Origin: Desulfobacterales bacterium
GTDB lineage: Bacteria; Desulfobacterota; Desulfobacteria; Desulfobacterales; DTYH01
NCBI GenBank assembly: GCA_012961955.1
Contig: DTYH01000241.1
Coordinates: 1-47,880 of the forward strand
Direction of reading: 5' to 3'
Length of the DNA: 47,880 nt
Shown: piece by piece, positions 23,805 through 36,490 of the stretch
Layout of the letters: every line of letters begins with the position of its first letter
How positions within the stretch are numbered: the first letter of the stretch is position 1
Translations under genes and position numbers: made by a program
The notes under the pieces: model-generated
What the model saw: the letters and a program-made list of their open reading frames with translations, nothing else
Told to the model about the DNA's origin: nothing
The model's database searches: none

Positions 23805-24737
23805 CTAAACCACCTCTGGCCTTGGATAAAGGCCGCTCCGTTCCACGATCTCCGGCACTTTCTCTTCCCACTCAATAGCCATAATGTGAAAACCTCTGAC
23901 GCCTTCCACTTCTCTGAGCCTCTGTATGGTCTCAACACATATCTTGATCCCTTCTTCTGGCTGCTTCTCCTTAGGTACACCACTCATTCTTTTGACTATT
24001 CCATCAGGCACATCCATACCAGGTACGCGATTCTTCATGTATCTTGCCATGCCTGCCGACTTTAAAGGTGTCACTCCCGCCAGGATGTATGTCTTCTCGT
24101 GGAGGCCTCTATCTCTCGCCATCTTCATCCACGACTCGAACTTCTCAACGTTATAGACACACTGGGTCTGTATAAATTCCGCCCCAGCAGCTATCTTTTT
24201 TGCCAGGCGGCGAACCCGTATCTCAAATGGGTCTGCAAATGGATTTGCCGCTGCACCCACAAACATCTTTGGAGGTCGCTGAATATCTTCCCCCCCTAGG
24301 AACTTGGCCTCATCCCTCATGAATCTGACAGTCTGAACCAAATTTATTGAGTCAAGATCGAATACGTTCTGCCCATGCGGGTTGTCGCCAAATATCTGAT
24401 GATCTCCGGAGAGGCATAATATGTTATAGATATCAAACGATGCAGCACCAAGGATATCACTTTGTAAGGCGATTCGATTCCTGTCTCTTGTGACCATCTG
24501 AAGTACTGGTTCAACACCCATTAGCTTGAGGTGGATACAGGCAGCCAGACTACAGAGGCGGGTCACTGAGGTCTGATTGTCAGTAACATTGATGGCATCA
24601 ACATGATCCTTGATCATCTTGGCCTTCTTTGTAACAAACTCTCCATCACTACCGCGGGGCGGACCGCACTCAGACGTAACTGCCAGATGTCCAGCTGCAA
24701 GAATCTTTTCCAGCTTACTCGGCGTATTTGTGTTCAT
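23805..24737 (-). CDS. metF: Methylenetetrahydrofolate reductase, acetogen/SRB type
   Basis: 310-aa ORF. MTHFR motifs (ECGPPRG, INVTDNQ, MVTRDRNRIALQSDILGA, LSGDH). ATGA overlap with upstream metV. Confidence 0.88.
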   Translation of the reverse strand: MNTNTPSKLEKILAAGHLAVTSECGPPRGSDGEFVTKKAKMIKDHVDAINVTDNQTSVTRLCSLAACIHLKLMGVEPVLQMVTRDRNRIALQSDILGAASFDIYNILCLSGDHQIFGDNPHGQNVFDLDSINLVQTVRFMRDEAKFLGGEDIQRPPKMFVGAAANPFADPFEIRVRRLAKKIAAGAEFIQTQCVYNVEKFESWMKMARDRGLHEKTYILAGVTPLKSAGMARYMKNRVPGMDVPDGIVKRMSGVPKEKQPEEGIKICVETIQRLREVEGVRGFHIMAIEWEEKVPEIVERSGLYPRPEVV

Positions 24738-25402
24738 AGTCTTAAGTCCTCCCTGACTACCCTTCTGGGTCCACCGGCCCGTTCAGTGGACCAATCTTTA
24801 ATGGGAATAATCTTCTCATAGTCGTCCAGTCTACCCAGTTCATTAAGCCGGTCGATGATAAGCTGCCAGGCACAATCGAGCTCTTTATCTATTTCACACT
24901 TCCCTTTTGTGGATCCGCCGCAAGGGCCATTGAGGATTCTTTTAGCACACCGGGAAATGGGACAGATTCCAGCTGTCTCTCCTAGGATACATTTCCCACA
25001 CCCCTGACACCGTTCGCTCCAGACACCCCTTTCCTCAGTCACCCCCATGAAGCAAGTATCTACTCCTGGCAAGACACGGGTCCTGAAATATTTCTCAGCC
25101 ATAAATTGTACTCCGGCGCCACAGGCCAAGGAGATTACTACATCATATCGGTCGATGATCTTCCTCAACTCTTCCAGATATTCGTGGTCGCACTGACGCT
25201 CCAGGGTGACCTCGTCAATCTTCATATTCTTTCCCTGATTCATGAAATACATGCGAAGCGCCGAGGCAAGTATCCCCACCTCTTTTTTGCCACCCGCCTC
25301 ACAGACTGTAACGCATTCATTACAACCTGCTATAAGGATCTTTTCATAATCCCTTACCCCTTCAATGATCTCCTCGATCGGCTTTTGTTTCGCCACAATC
25401 AT
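24734..25402 (-). CDS. metV: MetV (MTHFR C-terminal-domain, Cys-rich Fe-S/Zn subunit)
   Basis: 222-aa ORF. Cys clusters (GCNECVTVCEAGG; CQGCGKCILGETAGICPISRCAKRILNGPCGG) as in the MetF-associated small subunit of acetogens. Confidence 0.75.
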   Translation of the reverse strand: MIVAKQKPIEEIIEGVRDYEKILIAGCNECVTVCEAGGKKEVGILASALRMYFMNQGKNMKIDEVTLERQCDHEYLEELRKIIDRYDVVISLACGAGVQFMAEKYFRTRVLPGVDTCFMGVTEERGVWSERCQGCGKCILGETAGICPISRCAKRILNGPCGGSTKGKCEIDKELDCAWQLIIDRLNELGRLDDYEKIIPIKDWSTERAGGPRRVVREDLRL

Positions 25403-25469: not shown

Positions 25470-25907
25470 TCATATCATGCACCCATTCTTTTCCTTACTT
25501 ATTTTGATCGGGTTAGGTCCCATCTTTCTTATCTTTTCCGTCATTTCAACAGCGATCTCGGCAAACCGGGGTCCTTCACCAGAAGAGAGGTTATACATCT
25601 GCACCCGCTCACCTCCAACACCTATGCTTTCCAATATATGCTGAGCCTGTTCCACCCGCTTCCGGGCCCTCAGGTTGCCGCTATTGAACCGACAGTCACC
25701 TTCCAGGCAACCGACTACATAGACTCCGTCTGCCCCCTTTTCAAAAGCCCGTAAGAGATGAAGGACATCGACTTTGCCGGTACAAGGAACACCGATAATC
25801 TTTATATTTTCTGGGTATTGGATACGCATGGAACCTGCCAGGTCCGCGGCTGAGTATCCTCAGAAGTTACAGCAAAACGTGATAATGATCGGCTCGAATC
25901 CTTCCAT
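25470..25907 (-). CDS. mvhD: MvhD-like [2Fe-2S] protein with an in-frame TGA (predicted Sec) at codon 16
   Basis: Track ORF 25470..25829 extends in frame to ATG 25907, which overlaps the hdrA stop as TAATG. Reading: MEGFEPIIITFCCNF-TGA(25860-25862)-GYSAADLAGSMRIQYP.... The TGA replaces the second Cys of the CNWC motif that is present in the paralog at 29.7 kb. Confidence 0.75.
25820..25859 (-). promoter_or_regulatory. Candidate SECIS stem-loop for mvhD copy 1
   Basis: The RNA immediately 3' of the UGA is GGAUAC-N28-GUAUCC, with an inner GGACC-UGGCA-GG(U)UCC hairpin. Confidence 0.45.
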
Positions 25908-28900
25908 TATAAGACTCCTTCCAGCAAGGCTTCGACTTTGCTTAAAACCTGTTCATCTTCGTACCAGTTTAGTTGAATCGCCTTTGCAGGGCATTCCGCG
26001 GCACAGATTCCGCAGCCGTGACACAGGGCCTCATCAATTTCGCTGGCACCCTTCTCATTGACTCGAGGTACATCATAAGGGCAAGCCCGAACACATATAA
26101 GGCATGCTGCACACCTGTCCTGGTCTACGTTTGCGGTTACGGCAGAAAGGACGATCTCTGGCTGGGAAAGGAATGTGGTAGCCCTGGAAGCTGCCGCAAG
26201 GGCCTGAGAGATGGTCTCGGATATGAGCTTTGGGCTGTGCGCTGTGCCGCACAGGAATATCCCTTCATTCGCCAGATCGACTGGTCTCAATTTGACATGG
26301 GCCTCAATGAAATATCCCTCTTCGTTTCTGGGTAGCTTGAGGATAGAAGCCAGTTCTTCTGTATCCTCAGGGACCATGCCCGAGCTCAAGGCCAGCAGAT
26401 CGGCCGGAACCTGAAGATCCCGTTGAAGCAGGTGATCCTTGAAGGTTACGATCACGCCTTCTCTTGCAGATTCAACAACCGGTGGGTTGTCGACATGGTA
26501 CCGGAAAAACGCGACGCCTTTGCGTCTGGCCTCGGTGAAATAGTCTTCCAGCAGCCCATACGTTCGTATATCACGATATAGGATATAAACCTCGGCATCC
26601 GGATTAAGCTCTTTTATATGCAAGGCATTCTTCACAGCGCTCTGACAGCAGACTCTGGAGCAGTTGGGGTTTTCCTCGTTCCTGGAACCAACGCATTGGA
26701 TCATGACCACCCGCTTGAGGTCAGAAGCCCCCTTTACCTCCAATCGTTTCCCCAGTTCAATTTGGGTCATCACGCGAGGATCCTGTCCGTATAAATACTC
26801 TTTTGGTTTGTACTCATTAGCACCAGTGGCCACAATAACCACCCCGTGCTGAATCTTCCGCTCGTACATTCGGGGACCGACCAGAATCTCCGTGGTGAAG
26901 TTCCCTTTGAATCCAGTGAATCCGACGATGAGAGATTCGGTCAGTACCTGAATCATTTTATGCTGGTTGACCTTTTCGATCAGCTCATATAGGTAGGCCT
27001 GTATATCCTCACCTTCGATAGTGGTTGTTAATTCCCTTGCCAGACCGCCAAGTTGGGCCTCTTTTTCCACAATCACCGCCTCAAAACCCTGGTCTGCAAG
27101 ACCTAAAGCGGCATTCATACCTGCAATACCGCCCCCGATCACCAGTCCTCGTCGGTTGATGGGAATCCTTTTTTCTTTGAGTGGTTTTAGTAGATTCGCC
27201 CTGGCCACCGCCATCCTTACGAGATCCTTCGCCTTGTTAGTAGCGGTCTCGGGATCGTTTCCATGAACCCATGAGTTATGGTTTCTGATATTGGCCATCT
27301 CGAACAGATACTTATTCAGACCACATGCCTGAAGAGTCTCCTGGAACATCTGTTCATGTGTCCTTGGGGAGCATGAGGCAACCACAACCCGGTTTAGATT
27401 CTTCTCTTTGATCACCTCTTTGATCTTGTCCTGGGTGTCCTGAGAGCAGGTGAAGAGATTCTGATCGGTAAAAACAACATTGGGCAGGGTGGCAGCGTAT
27501 TCGGCCACGGCAGGGACGTCAACGACACCACCAATATTGATCCCACAATTGCAGACGAAGACCCCGATCCTGGGCTCCTCTTCCGCCACATCGATCTCAA
27601 CCGGCATCTCAATGGACTTTGCGTCTCTTCCCCTTGCTTCGGCAAGTACTGTCGCTGCTGCACAAGCAGCAGCACTGGCCTCAGTAACCGAGGTGGGAAT
27701 ATCTTTTGGACCTTGAAACACTCCACTGACAAAAATGCCTGGTCGTGATGTACTGACTGGTGAAAACGGATGGGTGGCCGCAAATTTGTATTTGTTCACC
27801 TCCACACCAAGCCTTCTGGCCAGGTCAAGAAGTGAATCAGGGATTCGCAAGCCAACGGACAGCACGACCATGTTGAATGTTTCTCTCTTTAGCTCTCCTC
27901 CTTCATCAACGTACTCTATGGATAAATCTCCAGTCTCGCGTACCTCATCAATGGTGTGAATCCTGGACTTGACAAACCGGACTCCACTCTTATCCTTTGC
28001 TCGTTGGTAGTACTTCTCGTAGTCTTTTCCGAAGGTTCTCATGTCGATGTTGAATACGGTACAGTCAAGTTCTCCATGTGAATGCTCCTTGGCGATCATG
28101 GCCTCCTTTATGGCATACATGCAACAGACAGAAGAACAATAGCCATTCCCACAAAGATTGACATCCCTTGACCCCACACACTGAATCCAGGCGATTCTCC
28201 TGGGCCCTTCTCTGTCCAAGGGTCGCATAAGGTGTCCTCGATAAGGGCCAGATGCACTCAAGATTCTTTCAAACTCTTCGCTGGTGACCACGTTGGAAAA
28301 CCTACCATAACCTAATAGCTCCAAGCCTGATGGATCAAAACCCTGACTCCCTGGAGACAGTATCAACGCTCCAACAGAAAGGGTGGTTCTTCTTTCCGTA
28401 TCATCGTAATTGATGGCCTTTGCCAGGCACATGGCTTCACAAAGGCCGCAACCAATGCATGTATCTGGATCAATTGCAAAGGCAAGAGGTACAGCCTGGG
28501 CATATTCTATGTAAGCAGCTTTCCTTTCATCCAACCCTAGATTATATAGGTTGAGAGTCGTGACAGGACAGTGTTTGGCACATTCCCCACAACCCGTACA
28601 CTTAACAGGATCGATATACCGGGGATAGCTGATCAGTGTGACCTTAAAATTTCCAGGCTTGCCTTCAACGCTTTCTATTTCACTATTTGTGACGATATTT
28701 ATGTTCAGGTGCCGGCCGACCTCGACCAGTTTCGGAGAAATAATTCACATCGCGCAGTCATTGGTCGGAAAGGTCTTGTCCAAACGGGACATCATACCGC
28801 CTATACTTGACGACCTCTCCACTAGGTGAACATAGTACCCCGAATTGGCAAGATCCAATGCGGCCTGCATGCCTGAAATGCCTGCACCGATGACCATTAC

Positions 28901-28933
28901 TGATCCACTCTTGATATCTTTTATATCTCCCAT
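25907..28933 (-). CDS. hdrA: Large tandem-module HdrA-like flavoprotein (1008 codons) with an in-frame TGA (predicted Sec)
   Basis: Track ORFs 28745..28933 and 25907..28534 are in the same frame with TGA 28745-28747 as the only stop between them. Reading: VIGAGISGMQAALDLA...[21 protein letters not shown]. It has two GxGxxG sites, two CVGSR...CC modules and four CxxCxxCxxxC ferredoxin motifs. AAGGAG RBS before ATG 28933. Confidence 0.82.
28712..28729 (-). promoter_or_regulatory. Candidate SECIS hairpin for hdrA copy 1
   Basis: The RNA CUGGUC-GAGGUC-GGCCGG starts 15 nt after the UGA. It forms a 6-bp stem (including G-U pairs) with a GGUC-containing loop. The 20 nt CTGGTCGAGGTCGGCCGGCA are identical in hdrA copy 2, although flanking synonymous sites differ. 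Confidence 0.6.
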
Positions 28934-28960: not shown

Positions 28961-29713
28961 TCAGGATATTAATCCAAATACAGGCACGCTACCTTGGTAT
29001 CCTTTAAATGCAACCTGGTTAATCTTTTCCATCTCTGAAAGGAGATACGATATCCTGCGTAGTTCAAGCCCTGTACGTTTGCTGATATCCCTCACACAGG
29101 ATGAGCCTTCCTTCAATGCAAGGTAGATCTGGTTCTTCTGGTATTCCCTTTCTAAAACAGAGGTCAAGATACCCTCAAATCGGCTCGCATCCCACTTCCG
29201 ACCATATACGTCGCCTGCGGTAGTCAGTGAGACCTCCTTCCCCACGAGCCAGCGCAACGTTTCGCTGGCCACCGTCATCTCAGCTGCATCGAGCTCCAGT
29301 TTGAAGGCCCGGGCATCAAACCTACCCTGACGCTTTATCGATTCAGTAACATTGTTAACAATTTCAGCAAAACGTTGCCCTTCTGCTGAAGAACACCAGG
29401 CGATATGAAGTCTGTCTCTTCCTATAGAGGCAAGATCCAGAAGCCTTTGGGTAAGACGGATTTTCTTTTCTGCTTGAACATTACCTTCCAGGTAATGGCA
29501 ATCACCGATATGTCACCCTGAAACCAGGACCCCGTCCCAACCGTCCTTTAAGGCCTTTATGACAAACACAGGATCAACGCGTGCAGAGCACATGACCCTC
29601 ACTGACCTCAGGTTTGATGGGTATTGGAGACGAGATACCCCGGCAAGATCCGCTGCTGCGTACGCGCACCAGTTACACAAAAATGCCAATATCTTTGGTT
29701 CAAATTGTTCCAT
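28961..29713 (-). CDS. mvhD: MvhD-like protein with an in-frame TGA (predicted Sec) and a ~110-aa winged-helix-like C-terminal extension
   Basis: Track ORFs 29513..29743 and 28961..29278 are in the same frame. Reading: ...DGWDGVLVSG-TGA(29513-29515)-HIGDCHYLEGNVQAEKK...; the paralog has GCLEGDC there. Start ATG 29713 (MEQFEPKILAFLCNWCAY, AGGGAGG upstream) is preferred over 29743. C-terminus: SCVRDISKRTGLELRRISYLLSEMEKINQVAFKG. Confidence 0.72.
29479..29497 (-). promoter_or_regulatory. Candidate SECIS hairpin for mvhD copy 2
   Basis: The RNA CAUUACC-UGGAA-GGUAAUG forms a perfect 7-bp stem with a 5-nt loop and starts 15 nt after the UGA. Confidence 0.55.
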
Positions 29714-30231
29714 GTTGTCTACAACCTCCCTTTCACCAGCCATCTACACTCATTCCCAGAACTCCAGTTAATCAATCGCAACATTTAAGCGTTCTGAAAC
29801 AAGCCGGTTGCATCAGACTCAAGCTGAACTTACGATGCAGGATATATGATGCATTCGGCGGAAACACATTGCACGTAAACCCCGTGTGAAAAAAGAAGTA
29901 TGTGTCGATTTTGACCCCGTGATTCCGCACGGGGCTTTTCTAGCGGAGTAAATCCAGTTATCCGCGTAACCTTTCATAAGCAAAACCAACCGTAGGGTGG
30001 CATCTTACATCTCACCGAAATTGCGGTGTGGTGCAAACCCCTTACAAATATTATCAAACCATAAGGCTTGTGGCTGCTTACTCTATCCTCGGTTTTGCAC
30101 GTAGCCATGACTATAACCAGATTTGCGGGATGCTGTAATCTTGCATCGTGTATCGTATGTTCAGAATTCGGCTTGTCTTTTGACGGGGCACGGTTTGTTT
30201 CAAGAGGCTGAAGTCTTAAAACCAATCAATC

Positions 30232-33200
30232 TTATATCCCAGCAGATACGGCCGCCAAGATCTGGCGATCCCTGAAATGGAGCATATCGACAGCCCTTTG
30301 TGGACATGAGGCTGCACATAATCCGCATCCCTTGCAGGAAGCCTGAATGTTTTTTGCCCGATACCCCTTGCCCTCTATCTCCTCCATGAGAATACCTCCA
30401 AAACTGCACACTTGTGCACACAGGCCACATCCGATACATCTATCACTGTCTATCTGCGCGACAATAGGAGAAATCTTAATAGAAGGCTTTGAAAGGACAA
30501 CGGAAGCCCTGCTCGCGGCAGCCATCGCTTGAGTAATGCTTTCATCGATCGGTTTAGGATGGTGCGCCAAACCACACACGAATAAGCCGTCATTTGCAAA
30601 ATCTACAGGTCTGAGCTTTGCGTGGGCCTCTACAAAAAACCTATCATCGTCTAAGGGTAGCTTGAAATAACTGGCAAGCTCTTCATGCCCTGATGGTTCA
30701 ATGGCCGTCGCCAGATTCAGGAAATCCGATTTGATCAAAAGATCCCTCTGAAGGACTGGATCAAATACACGAATCTCGAGTCCATCACCTACTTCATTGA
30801 CAATAGGCTTCTTTTCAGGGGTGTATCTAATAAAGATTATTCCCTTCTCCCTTGCTTTCCGGTAAAGGGCTTCTTTCTCCCCATATGTCCTAATATCCCG
30901 ATATAATATAAAAATCTCCATATCGGGCTTTTGTTCTTTTAGATGAATGGCCTGCGTAATAGATGTCGTGCAACAGAGCCTTGAGCAGTAAGGTCTACGT
31001 TCGTCCCTTGATCCCACACACAGGATAAAAGCAACAGCTTTAGCATTCCTGATCTTGTCCGGATCTTGCTCAAGTTCATGCCATCGCGTCACCCTCGGAT
31101 TCTTGCCATAAAGGTACTCATCTGTGCTTGAAGCCCGTGCACCGGTAGCTATAATCCCCACTCCATGCTTGATAATCCTGGCCTCTCCTTTGTGAAGGAC
31201 TTCTGTTTCAAAGTTGCCGATAAAACCCGAAGAACCTGTCACCTCTGCGTTCAACAGGACTTCCATTCGAGGATGGCTCTCCACCCTGTTCACCAAGTCA
31301 GATAGATACTTGTTAACATCCTTCCCACCCCATGTCTCTTTGATGTCTCTTGCATTTCCTCCCAATACGGACGATTTTTCGACAATAGTTGTGGGAAAAC
31401 CCTGGTCAGCAAGGCTCAAGGCCGCATTCATACCAGCAACACCCCCTCCAATAACAAGCGCAGATCTCTCAATCTCCACCACTACATCTGGAATAGGCTC
31501 TAACAAAGATGCCTTTGCAATAGCCATCCTCACAAGGTCTTTGGCCTTTTCTGTGGCTGTCTCTTTACTATCGGAATGGACCCACGTGCATTGATTCCGG
31601 ATATTGGCCATTTCGAATAGATGCTGGTTCAATCCAGCCTTCCGTATGGTTTCCTGAAATAGAGCTTCATGTGTCTTTGGTGAACACGCCGCAACCACAA
31701 GGCGGTTCAGAGCGTGTTCTCTGATCACCTCAACCATCTTCTCCTGTGTGTCCTGGCTGCAGGTAAAAAGATTCTCTTCAACGTAGACCACATTGGGCAG
31801 GGTTTTTGCGTATTCCGCTATGGCAGGAACATCTGCAAACCCGCCAATATTTACTCCACAGTTGCACACAAATACGCCTATACGTGGCCCTTCATCGGTC
31901 ACATCATTTTCTTTAGGAAATACATGTTCCTTAATTAGTTGCCCTCGGGACGGAGCCAAGCTGGTAGCTGATGCGCACGCCGCTGCACTTGCCTCCATAA
32001 CACACTGAGGAATGTCCTTGCATCCCTGAAGCAGCCCGGCAACATAGATGCCTGGCCTGGAAGTCGCAACGGGCAAGAAATCCTCTGTATCCACAAAGTT
32101 GTACTGGTTAAGCCGAATACCCAGATTTTTGGCTAGGTCTACGGCAGGTTTCGCGGGTTCCATACCGACTGACAGGACGACCATATCAAACTCTTCTTCA
32201 ACCACCTTCCCGGATTCCTCCAAATAGTACTCGATTTTGAGTGTACCGGTCTCATCTGCTTGCGTAATAGTGTGTACTCTCGAACGGATAAAGCGAACCC
32301 CTTCAGATTTGGCCCTTTCAAGATATCTTTCAAACCCCTTTCCGTATGTTCGTATATCCATATAGAAGATAGCGCCCACGAAATCGTCCCCGATATGTTC
32401 CTTTGCAACCATGGCCTCCTTGATCGCATACATGCAACAGACCGATGAGCAGTACTCGTTGTCGCACCGGTTGACGTCGCGGGAACCAACACATTGAAGC
32501 CATGCGATCCTTCTCGCCTTTCTCTGGTCAGAAAGACGGACCACATCTCCGGCATAAGGGCCCCCGGCTGAAAGGATCCGTTCAAACTCTATGCTGCTCA
32601 CCACATTGGGAAGTGTGGAATATTGGTAATTATCGAACCGGGAAGGATCAAACGGTCGAAAACCGCCTGTCAAGATGATAGACCCGACCTCGATCTTTAC
32701 GATCTCTTCCTTCTCATCGAAATTGATTGCCCCGGCAGGGCAGAACTTTTCACAGGCCTTACACCTGCCGCCTTTCTTGAAGTATATGCATCTGCCTGGG
32801 TCAAGAACATATTTGAAAGGCACAGCCTGAGCGTATGGTAAATAGGCAGCCTTCCTAGTTGCGAGACCCTGGTTGAATTCGTCAACAGCCTTCGCAGGAC
32901 ACTTTTCAGCACATATCCCACAGGCAATACATTTTTCCATATCCACATAGCGAGGGGATCTCCTCAGGGTGACATCAAAACGACCCTCCTCTCCATCAAT
33001 GCTGCTTACTTCTGAAAGAGTAAGGAGTTCAATATTTATATGCCGGCCGACCTCGACCAGCTTTGGCGAAAGAATTCACATAGCACAGTCATTGGTCGGA
33101 AAGGTCTTATCTAGCTGGGCCATGACTCCGCCAACCGCGGGAGATTTTTCCACAAGATAAACATAGTAGCCCGACTCAGCCAGATCTAATGCCGATTGGA

Positions 33201-33267
33201 GCCCGGTGATACCACCTCCCACAACCATGACTGACCCTATCAGGTCATTAGATTCTCTCTTGGTCAT
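30232..33267 (-). CDS. hdrA: Large tandem-module HdrA-like flavoprotein, paralog 2 (1011 codons), with an in-frame TGA (predicted Sec)
   Basis: Track ORFs 33076..33267 and 30232..32946 are in the same frame with TGA 33076-33078 as the only stop between them. Reading: [21 protein letters not shown], the same position as in paralog 1. Same domain order as paralog 1. Confidence 0.82.
33043..33060 (-). promoter_or_regulatory. Candidate SECIS hairpin for hdrA copy 2
   Basis: Identical CUGGUCGAGGUCGGCCGG element at the same 15-nt offset from the UGA as in copy 1. Confidence 0.6.
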
Positions 33268-33282
33268 TCTCCATATTCCTCT

Positions 33283-34158
33283 CTACAGGTTTGCTGCGTT
33301 AAGAACCTGTGGGAGCTTATCCTCCCACCCTACGGTTGAGATCATAACTCCTGCCATTCCCATATCTTTCAACTGGTTAATGAGTTCCCCTGCTATTTGA
33401 ATACAATGCTTTAACCTGTCCGGTGCTTTCTGAATCCCCCTTATCATCTCGGAGGGGATGGAGATGTTCTTGATGTTTCGATCGATGTAGCGTGCCATTC
33501 CAACAGACTTTAGAAGGAGAACAGTCGGGATCACAGCAACTTGGCTTGTATCTATTCGTTTAATGAACTGCTGGAATTGGTGAAGGTCAAAGACTGGGGT
33601 AGTAACGACAAATTCCACCCCAGCCTCTATCATCTTTTGAAGGTTCTCTATCTCCGTGTCTAGGCCACTGCCGACCGCGCCCGCGTTAATAGTCGAACCG
33701 ATAAAGAACTCTGGTGCACTTGAAAGCTCTATCCCTGCCATATCCCTGCCCCTTTGAAGCTTTTGAATCGTCTCCACTAGTTGTATCAGGTCTAAATCGT
33801 ATACAGCCTTTGCCTGGGGATGATCACCATATCGGATATCTTCGCCCGAGACGGCCATGATATTAGGTATTCCTAAAGCAGCCGCAGCAAGGACGTCTCC
33901 CTGTAGGGCCAACCTGTTTCGATCCCGACAACATACCTGAAAAACCGTCTCAAAACCGTTCATTTGAAGAAAGACACATCCGCCGAGAGAACTTGCCTTC
34001 ATTACGGAGTTGGCCATTTCAGGTATCACAAGCGCATCTAAGCGACCCTTTACCTGGTTGGCATTCTTCAAAAGACGAGAGAAGTCAGCACCTTTAGGCG
34101 TTTCAAATTCACCCAGCACGATATGTTCACCAGATTCTATCTTTTCCTTTAGCGGCAT
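33283..34158 (-). CDS. Divergent MetF-like (MTHFR family) protein, no adjacent MetV
   Basis: 291-aa ORF, collinear with MTHFR motifs (QVCCRDRNRLALQGDVLAAAALGI, AVSGED, FFIGSTIN, TPVFD). 15 nt upstream of hdrA paralog 2. Confidence 0.7.
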   Translation of the reverse strand: MPLKEKIESGEHIVLGEFETPKGADFSRLLKNANQVKGRLDALVIPEMANSVMKASSLGGCVFLQMNGFETVFQVCCRDRNRLALQGDVLAAAALGIPNIMAVSGEDIRYGDHPQAKAVYDLDLIQLVETIQKLQRGRDMAGIELSSAPEFFIGSTINAGAVGSGLDTEIENLQKMIEAGVEFVVTTPVFDLHQFQQFIKRIDTSQVAVIPTVLLLKSVGMARYIDRNIKNISIPSEMIRGIQKAPDRLKHCIQIAGELINQLKDMGMAGVMISTVGWEDKLPQVLNAANL

Positions 34159-34699: not shown

Positions 34700-34751
34700 G
34701 ACCTATGATCTTGTGATATCAGATATGGACTCGAATCTGTTCTCTTTTAGA

Positions 34752-34766
34752 GCAATGTTGGTGCCT
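34752..34766 (-). promoter_or_regulatory. Sigma54 (-24/-12) promoter
   Basis: The minus strand reads AGGCAC-CAACA-TTGCT against consensus TGGCAC-N5-TTGCW, with exact GG-N10-GC spacing. It lies ~200 nt upstream of ATG 34549 and downstream of an NtrC-type activator gene. Confidence 0.6.
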
Positions 34767-35040: not shown

Positions 35041-36402
35041 TCAAGAAAGGTTATACCTCTTTATTTTCAGCCCTAATGTCTTGCGATTTATACCGAGTAT
35101 CTTTGCAGCCAGAGTCTTCTTCCCTCTGGTTCTCTGCAACACAAATCGGATATACTTCTTCTCCAGTTCTTCCAGGCTGAGAAGCTCTTCGGAAAATATC
35201 TGAAACTCTCCCTGCCTCTGCGAGATATACGCAGGCAGATTGCTAGCGCGTATTACGTCCGTATCTTCCAGGACAAGAATGCGCTCTATGATATGTTTGA
35301 GTTCTCTCACATTTCCCGGCCAAGCGTACTCTTTCAGTATCTCAATAGCCTCGGGTGAGACCTCAGGGATGGGCTTTTTTATCTTCTGACTGAATTGGTT
35401 AAGAAAGTGGTCTATAAGGAGGGGGATATCCTCCTTTCTTTCCCTTAGGGGAGGAAGATGAATGGGTACCACACTGAGACGATAATAGAGGTCTTCTCTG
35501 AAGGTTCCAGCTTTAATCGAATCATGGAGATCCTTATTGGAAGCAGATATGATCCTTATATCCAGTTTGATCTTCTTCTGATCTCCTACCTTCATGAATT
35601 CCCTTTCCTGGATCACCCGTAGAAGTTTTGCCTGAGTTGTCAGACTTAAGTTGGAAATTTCATCGAAGAAAAAGGTTCCATGATTAGCCAGCTCAAAAAG
35701 ACCGTGTTTTGTGTGTATCGCTCCAGTAAATGAACCCTTAACATGACCAAAAAGTTCACTCTCTAGGAGTGTCTCAACAAGGGACGAACAGTCCACCGCC
35801 ACAAATTCCTTATGACTCCGATTACTGTTTACATGAATTGCTCTGGCTACCAATTCCTTCCCTGTTCCGCTCTCTCCTGTAATAAGTACAGTGCTGTCCG
35901 TAGGTGCTACCCTGAGTATCTTATCGAATATCTCCTTCATGGGAGGGCTCTGGCCGACGATCAGGTGTTTGCTCGATTCAATCTTGAGCCCAAATTTATT
36001 TACTATAGACTTTTTGGATACCGTATCAGTCGGTTTAATCTTATTTATAGCGACCTCCAGATCATCGATCCGAAATGGTTTGACCAGATAATCCAAAGCT
36101 CCGAGTTTAATACATTGAACGGCCGTATCTATGGTTGGGTAACCGGTAATCATGATGACCCTTGTATCAGGATGTTTAACCCGTATCTCCTTCAACACCT
36201 GTATACCGTCCATATCCTCCATGCGAATATCAAGGAGGACAAGATCAAATCTGCTGTGCGCTAAAAGACTAAGGGCCTCACTACCATTTGCAGCCAGGAC
36301 AGAACTGATCCCTCTATTTCTGAGAATTCTATCGATTCCGTTACGGACAACAGGCTCGTCGTCTACAACCAGCACTCGATTTATATTGTTAAAAGAGTTC
36401 AT
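35041..36402 (-). CDS. Sigma54-dependent response regulator (NtrC family: REC-AAA+-Fis HTH)
   Basis: Track ORF 35041..36453; ATG 36402 (MNSFNNINRVLVVDDEP) is the likelier start. Walker A GESGTGKE, GAFTGA-type loop (GSFTGA), C-terminal HTH (KTLAAKILGINRKTLGLKIKRY). Confidence 0.9.
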   Translation of the reverse strand: MNSFNNINRVLVVDDEPVVRNGIDRILRNRGISSVLAANGSEALSLLAHSRFDLVLLDIRMEDMDGIQVLKEIRVKHPDTRVIMITGYPTIDTAVQCIKLGALDYLVKPFRIDDLEVAINKIKPTDTVSKKSIVNKFGLKIESSKHLIVGQSPPMKEIFDKILRVAPTDSTVLITGESGTGKELVARAIHVNSNRSHKEFVAVDCSSLVETLLESELFGHVKGSFTGAIHTKHGLFELANHGTFFFDEISNLSLTTQAKLLRVIQEREFMKVGDQKKIKLDIRIISASNKDLHDSIKAGTFREDLYYRLSVVPIHLPPLRERKEDIPLLIDHFLNQFSQKIKKPIPEVSPEAIEILKEYAWPGNVRELKHIIERILVLEDTDVIRASNLPAYISQRQGEFQIFSEELLSLEELEKKYIRFVLQRTRGKKTLAAKILGINRKTLGLKIKRYNLS

Positions 36403-36490
36403 AACAAAAGAACCCCTACCAAAGAATAGTAACATTTTTGCGTTTTTAAACAACGTAACAGCCGCATTAAACTCAAGCTGAATGCGCGAT

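Follow-up and report, generated by a model that had tools for sequence, protein, structure and literature searches.

How does a single operon come to encode two paralogous MvhD proteins that each appear to carry selenocysteine (Sec), but at different conserved cysteine positions? The question is raised by contig DTYH01000241.1, of which positions 1 to 47,880 of the forward strand (47,880 nt, hereafter the window) were analysed. The locus would comprise two modules, each pairing an HdrA-type flavoprotein with an MvhD adaptor protein, beside genes for MetF and MetV, in what is probably a sulfate-reducing bacterium of Desulfobacteraceae type; the closest named relatives of the locus are Desulfobacteraceae metagenome-assembled genomes (MAGs). 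Four in-frame UGA codons are found in the window, one in each of the two hdrA-like genes and one in each of the two mvhD genes, and the genes that bear them all lie on the minus strand. The reading favoured here, with a probability of roughly 0.8, is that all four UGAs are decoded as Sec, each through its own Sec insertion sequence (SECIS), and that the two mvhD genes belong to two old subfamilies whose Sec sites were inherited independently of one another. The two mvhD genes, with the codons and predicted elements on which this reading turns, are as follows.

28961..29743, minus strand: mvhD copy 2, the long form, an MvhD domain with a helical linker and a winged-helix tail of about 115 aa (PF02662 at residues 18-138, 166.8 bits)
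29666..29668, minus strand: TGC (Cys) of copy 2 at family column 16 (CNW-C), read directly from the sequence
29513..29515, minus strand: in-frame UGA (predicted Sec) of copy 2 at family column 67 (G-U-H-I-G-D-C), aligned with the invariant Cys67
29479..29497, minus strand: predicted SECIS hairpin of copy 2, CAUUACC (29497..29491), loop UGGAA and GGUAAUG (29485..29479), starting 15 nt past the UGA (folding and comparative codon tests)
25470..25907, minus strand: mvhD copy 1, the short VhuD-like form, 145 aa (PF02662, 164.8 bits)
25860..25862, minus strand: in-frame UGA (predicted Sec) of copy 1 at family column 16 (FCCNF-U-GYS), aligned with the invariant Cys16
25707..25709, minus strand: TGC (Cys) of copy 1 at family column 67 (VVG-C-LEGDCRF), read directly from the sequence
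25831..25845, minus strand: predicted SECIS core of copy 1, GGACCU, GGC and AGGUUC, starting 14 nt past the UGA (codon conservation in 77 orthologues)

Copy 2 reads MAGEREVVDNMEQFEPKILAFLCNWCAY...GVLVSG-TGA-HIGDCHYLEGN... and then continues for 183 further in-frame codons up to its own TGA stop. Copy 1, whose ATG overlaps the stop of hdrA-like gene 1 as TAATG, reads MEGFEPIIITFCCNF-TGA-GYSAADLAGS...GVYVVGCLEGDCRF and has no C-terminal extension. A first-pass annotation of this DNA had described the two genes in just these terms, with Cys in CNWC and TGA in GVLVSG-U-HIGDCHY of copy 2 and the opposite arrangement in copy 1, and all four codons are as it gave them. The longest open reading frame of copy 2 begins at ATG 29743; the true start is probably ATG 29713, because homologues begin MxxFEPKI and a GGGAGG ribosome-binding site lies 11 nt 5' of that codon.

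When searched with U written as C, both proteins match the PF02662 profile end to end across the UGA (profile positions 1-123 in copy 1 and 1-121 in copy 2; gathering cut-off 22.3 bits). They also match solved MvhD chains with E values from 9e-28 to 4e-44, the best being 4e-44 for copy 2 and 3e-43 (chain 9sfi_K) for copy 1. Among NCBIfam models, copy 1 is best matched by VhuD (NF045873; 177.1 bits, under the cut-off of 215), and copy 2 comes nearest to the HdrA2 MvhD domain, scoring 127.6 bits against the same VhuD model and cut-off. The invariant Cys columns of the MvhD family are 13, 16, 42, 67 and 72; all five are present in both copies, one per copy being UGA-encoded. Judged by these columns and by the solved homologues, each mvhD protein would be expected to bind one [2Fe-2S] cluster. 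The AlphaFold model of P0007, a protein 66% identical to copy 2, has a pLDDT of 89.7, and its N-terminal domain superposes on 5odc_D with a TM score of 0.83 (0.83-0.87 across 5odc_D, 8rvu_F and 7bkb_F), values that describe the homologue's model and not the window protein's. In the C-terminus of the same model, helices lead into an element of three helices and two strands that has weak winged helix-turn-helix (HTH) matches (3cuo, 2kko and Z-alpha), and weak MarR/HTH matches are present among the precomputed Pfam assignments of homologues.

UGA at these columns is found across the family and not only in this operon. The survey covered 84 DNA sources, namely the window, three syntenic loci and 80 loci that a family alignment had picked out of genomes, in which TGA-readthrough translations were searched with a hidden Markov model. 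It gave 130 MvhD domains, 87 with Cys at all five columns and 7 that are partial or non-canonical. UGA occurs in 36 of the 130, at column 67 alone in 23, at column 16 alone in 8 and at both in 5, and it occurs at column 13, 42 or 72 in none of them, a restriction that the protein matches share. Thus, across the 130 domains, columns 16 and 67 are the only two of the five invariant Cys that are ever recoded to Sec. Closer to the window genes, 16 of the 20 nearest homologues of copy 2 have UGA at column 67, and a metagenome scan for copy 1 gave 80 orthologues at 66-81% identity, 78 of which have TGA at column 16.

The same codons can be traced through protein databases by the way in which they have been translated. 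Among the best 120 protein matches to copy 2, 13 have W at column 67 and three begin MGDCHY, just past that column, while the best 120 matches to copy 1 include eight with W at column 16 and two that are truncated, one of them the window's own gene fragment. The codon is TGA in both of the W-called proteins that were checked in DNA. Public gene calls, mostly from JGI and ENA, thus give W for the UGA or split mvhD, with 21 W and five truncated cases in the best 240 matches (P0001-P0016 and P0124-P0161; loci L084 and L085).

In both window genes the stem begins 14-15 nt past the UGA and the apical loop 20-23 nt past it, with a G in the loop. The first-pass annotation had proposed a downstream hairpin for each UGA and, for copy 2, a 7-bp stem CAUUACC/GGUAAUG with loop UGGAA; folding returns exactly this stem, which can be extended to 8 bp with loop GGA. 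The copy 1 fold in the window extends to 25859..25820; its outer stem (GGAUAC/GUAUCC) is not conserved in orthologues and is not counted in the element. It is the comparative codon tests, rather than the folding of single hairpins, that place these structures above chance. Every bacterial gene with Sec at column 67 has an uninterrupted stem of 7-9 bp that starts 10-16 nt past the UGA, with a mean of 7.2 bp compared with 4.4 bp in 100 Cys homologues (p = 2e-10), and at column 16 the stems are likewise longer in Sec than in Cys genes (p = 0.008). Survey means of the synonymous-recoding z point the same way, being -1.41 where the gene has Sec and -0.18 where it has Cys (p = 1e-6).

The codon choices that underlie these differences are specific to the recoded genes. 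Where the peptide H-Y-x-x-G-N is encoded, all six inner pairs of the column-67 stem can form in 18 of 20 Sec genes but in only one of 87 Cys genes. The codons used by 18 of the 20 Sec genes are CAU-UAC...GGU-AAU; the other two use CAC-UAU...GGC-AAU, which gives a register-shifted stem, UGCCACUA/UAGUGGCA. Pairing is also kept by stem variants such as AUUUCC/GGAAAU and AUUACCA/UGGUAAU. Normalised synonymous entropy at the H, Y, L, G and N codons is 0-0.4 in the genes with Sec at column 67, as against 0.94-1.0 in Cys genes, and the syntenic orthologues with Cys at column 67 (L090 and L006) have UAU, GGC and AAC or AAU at these codons and have lost the canonical stem. The codons GCG-GAC-CTG-GCA-GGT, which encode A-D-L-A-G as codons +5 to +9 of copy 1 and form GGACCU/GGC/AGGUUC, are invariant in 76-77 of the 77 distinct orthologue sequences. 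Their normalised synonymous entropy is about 0, compared with 0.33-1.0 at other conserved residues; average values are 0.44 within the element and 0.85 beyond it (p = 0.0015). Two orthologues of copy 1 with Cys at column 16 have G-T in place of G-S and have lost the stem. Both in-frame hairpins are absent from the archaeal double-Sec genes L037 and L040, which fits the location of archaeal SECIS elements in the 3' untranslated region (UTR). On these comparisons of stem length, codon choice and synonymous entropy, the proposal of one hairpin per UGA is borne out, and both mvhD UGAs are predicted to be recoded through bacterial-type SECIS elements of their own.

The relationship between the two copies is a separate matter. 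Their proteins are 44% identical, and a neighbour-joining tree of 123 domains places copy 1 with short genes that have Sec at column 16 (U16) and with Asgard double-Sec VhuD-like genes, and copy 2 with long-form genes. A recent duplication followed by a Sec/Cys swap, which is how the first-pass annotation had portrayed the pair, was considered and is ruled out by this identity and by the separate clades: the paralogs diverged anciently. On the sequence evidence, copies 1 and 2 are old paralogs of different subfamilies, each of which would have inherited its own Sec site. When Sec and Cys are mapped onto the family tree, as that annotation had recommended, two Sec-bearing sites do emerge, with a minimum of three parsimony changes at column 16 and 10 at column 67, but no exchange between sister duplicates.

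Relatives of the locus display a variety of states. A long gene with Sec at column 67 (U67) and a short U16 gene are also paired in L001/L002, L004, L102, L108, L132, L135 and L140, whereas L006 and L090, which are syntenic, have Cys67 in the long form and U16 still in the short one. The architecture is reversed, with a short U67 and a long U16 gene, in L009 and in L019 (Candidatus Desulfacyla euxinica). One U67 and one U16 copy are found in L071, a MAG of the Firmicutes genus Desulfovirgula. In Desulfobulbales-type loci from Desulfocapsaceae, Desulfobacterales and Desulfobulbaceae MAGs (L045, L052 and L054) U67 copies stand alongside double-Sec copies; each UGA of these double-UGA bacterial genes has its own downstream hairpin, and the genes are bacterial counterparts of the archaeal double-Sec VhuD. 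The reciprocal pattern in the window is accordingly read, from sequence comparison, as two independently inherited Sec sites in one operon, a combination that is recurrent and not obligatory, the lability of column 67, with Cys in L006 and L090, arguing against an obligatory paired design. Nor does the description of the pattern as unusual survive: both positions are known Sec sites of archaeal VhuD, more than a quarter of the surveyed domains have a UGA, and reciprocal pairs recur in several lineages.

Could the UGAs be something other than Sec codons? Were one or both of them true stops, the mvhD genes would be pseudogenes or split genes, and automatic gene callers do break such genes at the UGA; the Sec machinery, moreover, is not visible in the window. 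This is very improbable, since homology and purifying selection persist beyond the UGA, with identities to orthologues of 0.77-0.85 before it and 0.58-0.73 after it. Dozens of independent genomes and metagenomes also keep the codon where the family has an invariant Cys, SECIS footprints are present at both UGAs, and at these two columns the archaeal homologue is already established as a selenoprotein. Genuine stop codons were rejected as a candidate on the post-UGA identity, the UGA in 78 of 80 orthologues and the synonymous-entropy footprint. Sequencing error is excluded because the window sequence is the same, letter for letter, in separate assemblies from ENA, JGI and Logan. An alternative genetic code (code 4 or 25), in which UGA would be read as Trp or Gly, is implied by the JGI translations and by the 21 of the best 240 database homologues that are deposited with W at column 16 or 67, and is the least probable explanation of all. 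UGA serves as the ordinary stop in 13 of the 29 window genes, including both mvhD genes, and an alternative code is therefore excluded; the affected columns are invariant Cys and not Trp, and the W calls derive from short contigs, where the presence of several in-frame UGAs probably led the gene caller astray.

A different kind of explanation, in line with the first-pass annotation, accepts the Sec codons and attributes their placement to adaptive sub-functionalisation, selection having put selenium at different sites so that the two HdrA/MvhD modules differ in redox potential or chemistry. The two sites do differ in kind, column 16 being a non-ligand redox Cys and column 67 a probable cluster ligand, each is strongly conserved inside its own orthologue group, and the reciprocal state is the commonest within the two-module architecture (eight loci, as against two with Cys67). 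However, the Sec state is inherited with the subfamily whether or not a partner is present: at 73 of the 80 copy 1 orthologue loci there is no second MvhD domain (within 5 kb flanks, many of the contigs being short), and the long form is found at only five of the 45 such loci with at least 4.5 kb of upstream sequence. The two syntenic loci with Cys67, the at least 10 changes of state at column 67 among 123 sequences, the reverse architecture of L009 and L019 and the double-Sec bacterial copies of L045, L052 and L054 all run counter to it as well. Sub-functionalisation is consequently regarded as improbable, though less so than true stops. Sec placement may conceivably give the two modules different potentials, an idea weakened by the lability of column 67.

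The preferred reading, of four Sec codons with their own SECIS elements and of two mvhD Sec sites inherited independently, also has evidence that tells against it. Shuffle tests of single hairpins were not significant (z = -1.0 for copy 2 and -1.4 for copy 1, with all folds between -1.4 and +0.25), and although the synonymous-recoding z is -2.0 for copy 1, it is an unexceptional -0.6 for copy 2. No selA, selB, selC, selD or tRNA-Sec gene was found in the window, where ARAGORN reports no tRNA at all, so that the Sec machinery is assumed. The neighbour-joining tree carries no support values, and the genome-scan patterns required Cys at column 16 or column 67, such that double-Sec genes were under-sampled as primary hits. 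Finally, elimination is the sole route to the role of column 67 given below, and the kinetic role proposed there for selenium is itself inferred.

Comparison with characterised systems places the window genes in a selenoprotein family that is already known, with Sec at positions known for it, and makes them in other respects an ordinary instance of it. Archaeal VhuD is reported to bear two Sec residues at a spacing of 50 codons (PMC4989117), the MvhD/VhuD family is listed in a 2026 review as a CxxU selenoprotein family with two Sec (PMC13188914), and PDB chain 9sfi_K has non-standard residues at exactly columns 16 and 67. VhuD resembles the window proteins in its PF02662 domain, its encoding beside hdrA and its Sec at the same columns (C-x-x-U and G-U-x-x-x-[DE]-C, 51 positions apart), and of the bacterial-type proteins here it is copy 1 that comes closest to it (E = 3e-43), with a VPCTGK motif common to both. 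It differs in that both Sec residues lie in one protein rather than one per paralog, in the use of a single archaeal SECIS in the 3' UTR instead of an in-frame bacterial hairpin per UGA, and in its partner, a [NiFeSe] hydrogenase, where the window has MetF/MetV and a doubled HdrA.

Among bacterial systems, BamF of the Geobacter metallireducens class II benzoyl-CoA reductase is an MvhD-type [2Fe-2S] adaptor and a selenoprotein (bioRxiv 10.64898/2026.04.10.717634). By that paper's description, like copy 2 with its tail, it exceeds archaeal MvhD in length by more than 100 aa and has a winged-helix motif, and BamE is described as a fused double HdrA with N-terminal Cys59/Cys62, comparable to C60/U63 of the window HdrA. 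BamF, however, has Sec19 at column 16, where copy 2 has Cys and carries its Sec at column 67, and the window has no bamBCDGHI genes. The long U16 forms of L009 and L019 are a better fit to BamF, and the neighbours in L019 are NuoF-like, CCG-domain and doubled-HdrA genes. The Bam-like cluster of L019 (3092-15952) runs from a NuoF-like gene through a 1079-aa Fe-S/HdrA fusion, the short U67 MvhD, a CCG-domain HdrD-like gene and a UGA-split double HdrA to the long U16 MvhD. Solved MvhD chains share with copy 2 the fold (as judged by the P0007 model), the five Cys columns and His68/Asp71, but lack the C-terminal extension and have Cys in every one of the five columns; in copy 1, Leu replaces His68. 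The MetFV-HdrABC-MvhD complex of Moorella thermoacetica likewise has mvhD and hdrA clustered with metV and metF. The window differs from it in being without hdrB and hdrC, in its doubled HdrA of about 1010 aa, and in having two HdrA/MvhD modules and a third MTHFR-family gene, with all four HdrA/MvhD proteins predicted to be selenoproteins. Desulfobacterium autotrophicum HRM2, also of the Desulfobacteraceae, has several hdrA/hdrL-mvhD pairs and Sec-containing mvhD1, 2, 3 and 5 (PMC2702500); a search of the paper's main text yielded no Sec positions.

What, then, might selenium do at these two columns? The first-pass annotation had predicted cluster-ligand or redox Cys positions, and this holds insofar as both are conserved Cys columns and one is a redox Cys in the literature. 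Column 16 corresponds to MvhD Cys16, an 'additional' conserved Cys that published structural work treats as a redox Cys lying near the [2Fe-2S] cluster without being a ligand of it (PMC13580544), and to Sec19 of BamF, for which a selenenylsulfide intermediate has been suggested (bioRxiv 10.64898/2026.04.10.717634). Column 67 is probably a [2Fe-2S] ligand, a role assigned because it is one of the four invariant Cys left after column 16 is set aside; neither an explicit list of MvhD [2Fe-2S] ligands nor a statement on Sec ligation in VhuD was found in the literature searched. It lies in the loop G-[C/U]-H-x-G-D-C, directly before His68 and four residues before Asp71, and His68 and Asp71 of MvhD are reported to approach or coordinate an unknown ligand held by HdrA Cys202/Cys205 (PMC13580544). 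This HdrA pair corresponds to the CxxU pair that carries Sec in the hdrA-like genes of the window, and that also carries Sec (U197) in M. maripaludis.

Recent structural papers leave the passage of electrons out of the [2Fe-2S] cluster of MvhD and on to flavin adenine dinucleotide (FAD) unexplained, the gap being more than 20 angstroms (PMC13580544 and bioRxiv 10.64898/2026.04.10.717634, among others). In the mechanism proposed for the window, each of the four UGAs would have a short hairpin to itself, 14-15 nt downstream, that acts as a bacterial SECIS, and the MvhD cluster would hand electrons to the FAD of the HdrA partner encoded upstream. A Sec at column 16, beside the cluster, or at column 67, on the cluster itself, may act with the Cys-Sec pair of HdrA to speed or ease this hand-over, and which column holds the selenium would be historically contingent and tied to selenium supply. 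A stronger proposal is that the residues at columns 16 and 67 and the Sec of HdrA form a selenium-assisted relay, by way of a selenolate ligand, a selenenylsulfide or both, that bridges the gap of more than 20 angstroms between cluster and flavin; this is conceivable but doubtful.

On the minus strand, the genes follow one another in the order MTHFR-family (methylenetetrahydrofolate reductase) gene, hdrA-like gene 2, a spacer of about 490 nt, mvhD copy 2, hdrA-like gene 1, mvhD copy 1, a metV-like gene and metF. Those around the two mvhD copies are:

33283..34158, minus strand: second MTHFR-family gene, 5' of hdrA-like gene 2 (PF02219, E = 2.5e-24)
30232..33267, minus strand: hdrA-like gene 2, 1011 aa, with in-frame UGA at 33076..33078 (C-A-M-U) and hairpin at 33042..33061 (translation, fold and NCBIfam)
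25907..28933, minus strand: hdrA-like gene 1, a doubled HdrA of 1008 aa, with in-frame UGA at 28745..28747 (C60-A-M-U63) and hairpin at 28712..28729 (translation; NCBIfam HdrA2 model at 903 bits, under its cut-off)
24734..25402, minus strand: metV-like gene (DUF5981, C-terminal domain family of methylene-tetrahydrofolate reductases; PF12225, E = 1.5e-37)
23805..24737, minus strand: metF, methylenetetrahydrofolate reductase (PF02219, E = 6.6e-36)

The two hdrA-like genes, each of about 1010 aa, encode two flavin-binding halves and are without the usual N-terminal domain. In both, the TGA lies within T-N-D-C-A-M-U near residue 63 and is followed by a common hairpin, CUGGUCG/AGGU/CGGCCGG. The adjacency of metF and metV to hdrA and mvhD is syntenic in L001 and L090. 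Two MTHFR-family genes are present in the locus, one without an adjacent metV and 5' of hdrA-like gene 2, the other as part of the metV-metF pair downstream of mvhD copy 1, which suggests two distinct reductase modules within one regulated locus. Elsewhere the window encodes ATP sulfurylase (sulfate adenylyltransferase), PAS histidine kinases, a sigma-54 activator and regulators. Domain searches of the window found no hdrB, hdrC or any CCG-domain gene, no AOR-type or NuoF-type gene was found there, and Rfam gave no match over the whole window at gathering thresholds.

The spacer between the stop of hdrA-like gene 2 and mvhD copy 2 (29744-30231) is non-coding, and its counterparts in syntenic loci measure about 20 nt (L001), about 25 nt (L005) and about 110 nt with (GTGGATA)n repeats (L004). 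It has no blastn match in related loci and no convincing coding frame, promoter or terminator, and Rfam gave no match over 29650-30300 at E up to 1. A terminator-like hairpin lies within it at 29915-29934 on the plus strand. Further upstream, AGGCACCAACATTGCT at 34751-34766 on the minus strand looks like a sigma-54 -24/-12 promoter, 5' of the operon of response-regulator, MTHFR and hdrA genes and downstream of the sigma-54 activator gene (36453..35041); the count of sigma-54 promoter-like matches across the window is not above chance.

The value of these observations for the family lies in the restriction of Sec to just two of the five invariant Cys, and in comparative codon tests that provide clean evidence for two distinct in-frame SECIS elements. 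They also indicate that Sec-containing MvhD and HdrA proteins are systematically mis-annotated in metagenomes, and so hidden in databases, because gene callers split them at the UGA or translate it as W. Selenium is confined to two adaptor Cys and the HdrA CxxU pair, and single-site versions occur side by side in bacteria, which offers a handle for mutagenesis and spectroscopy. Should the selenium-assisted relay prove true, the operon would supply natural single-site variants for each half of it.

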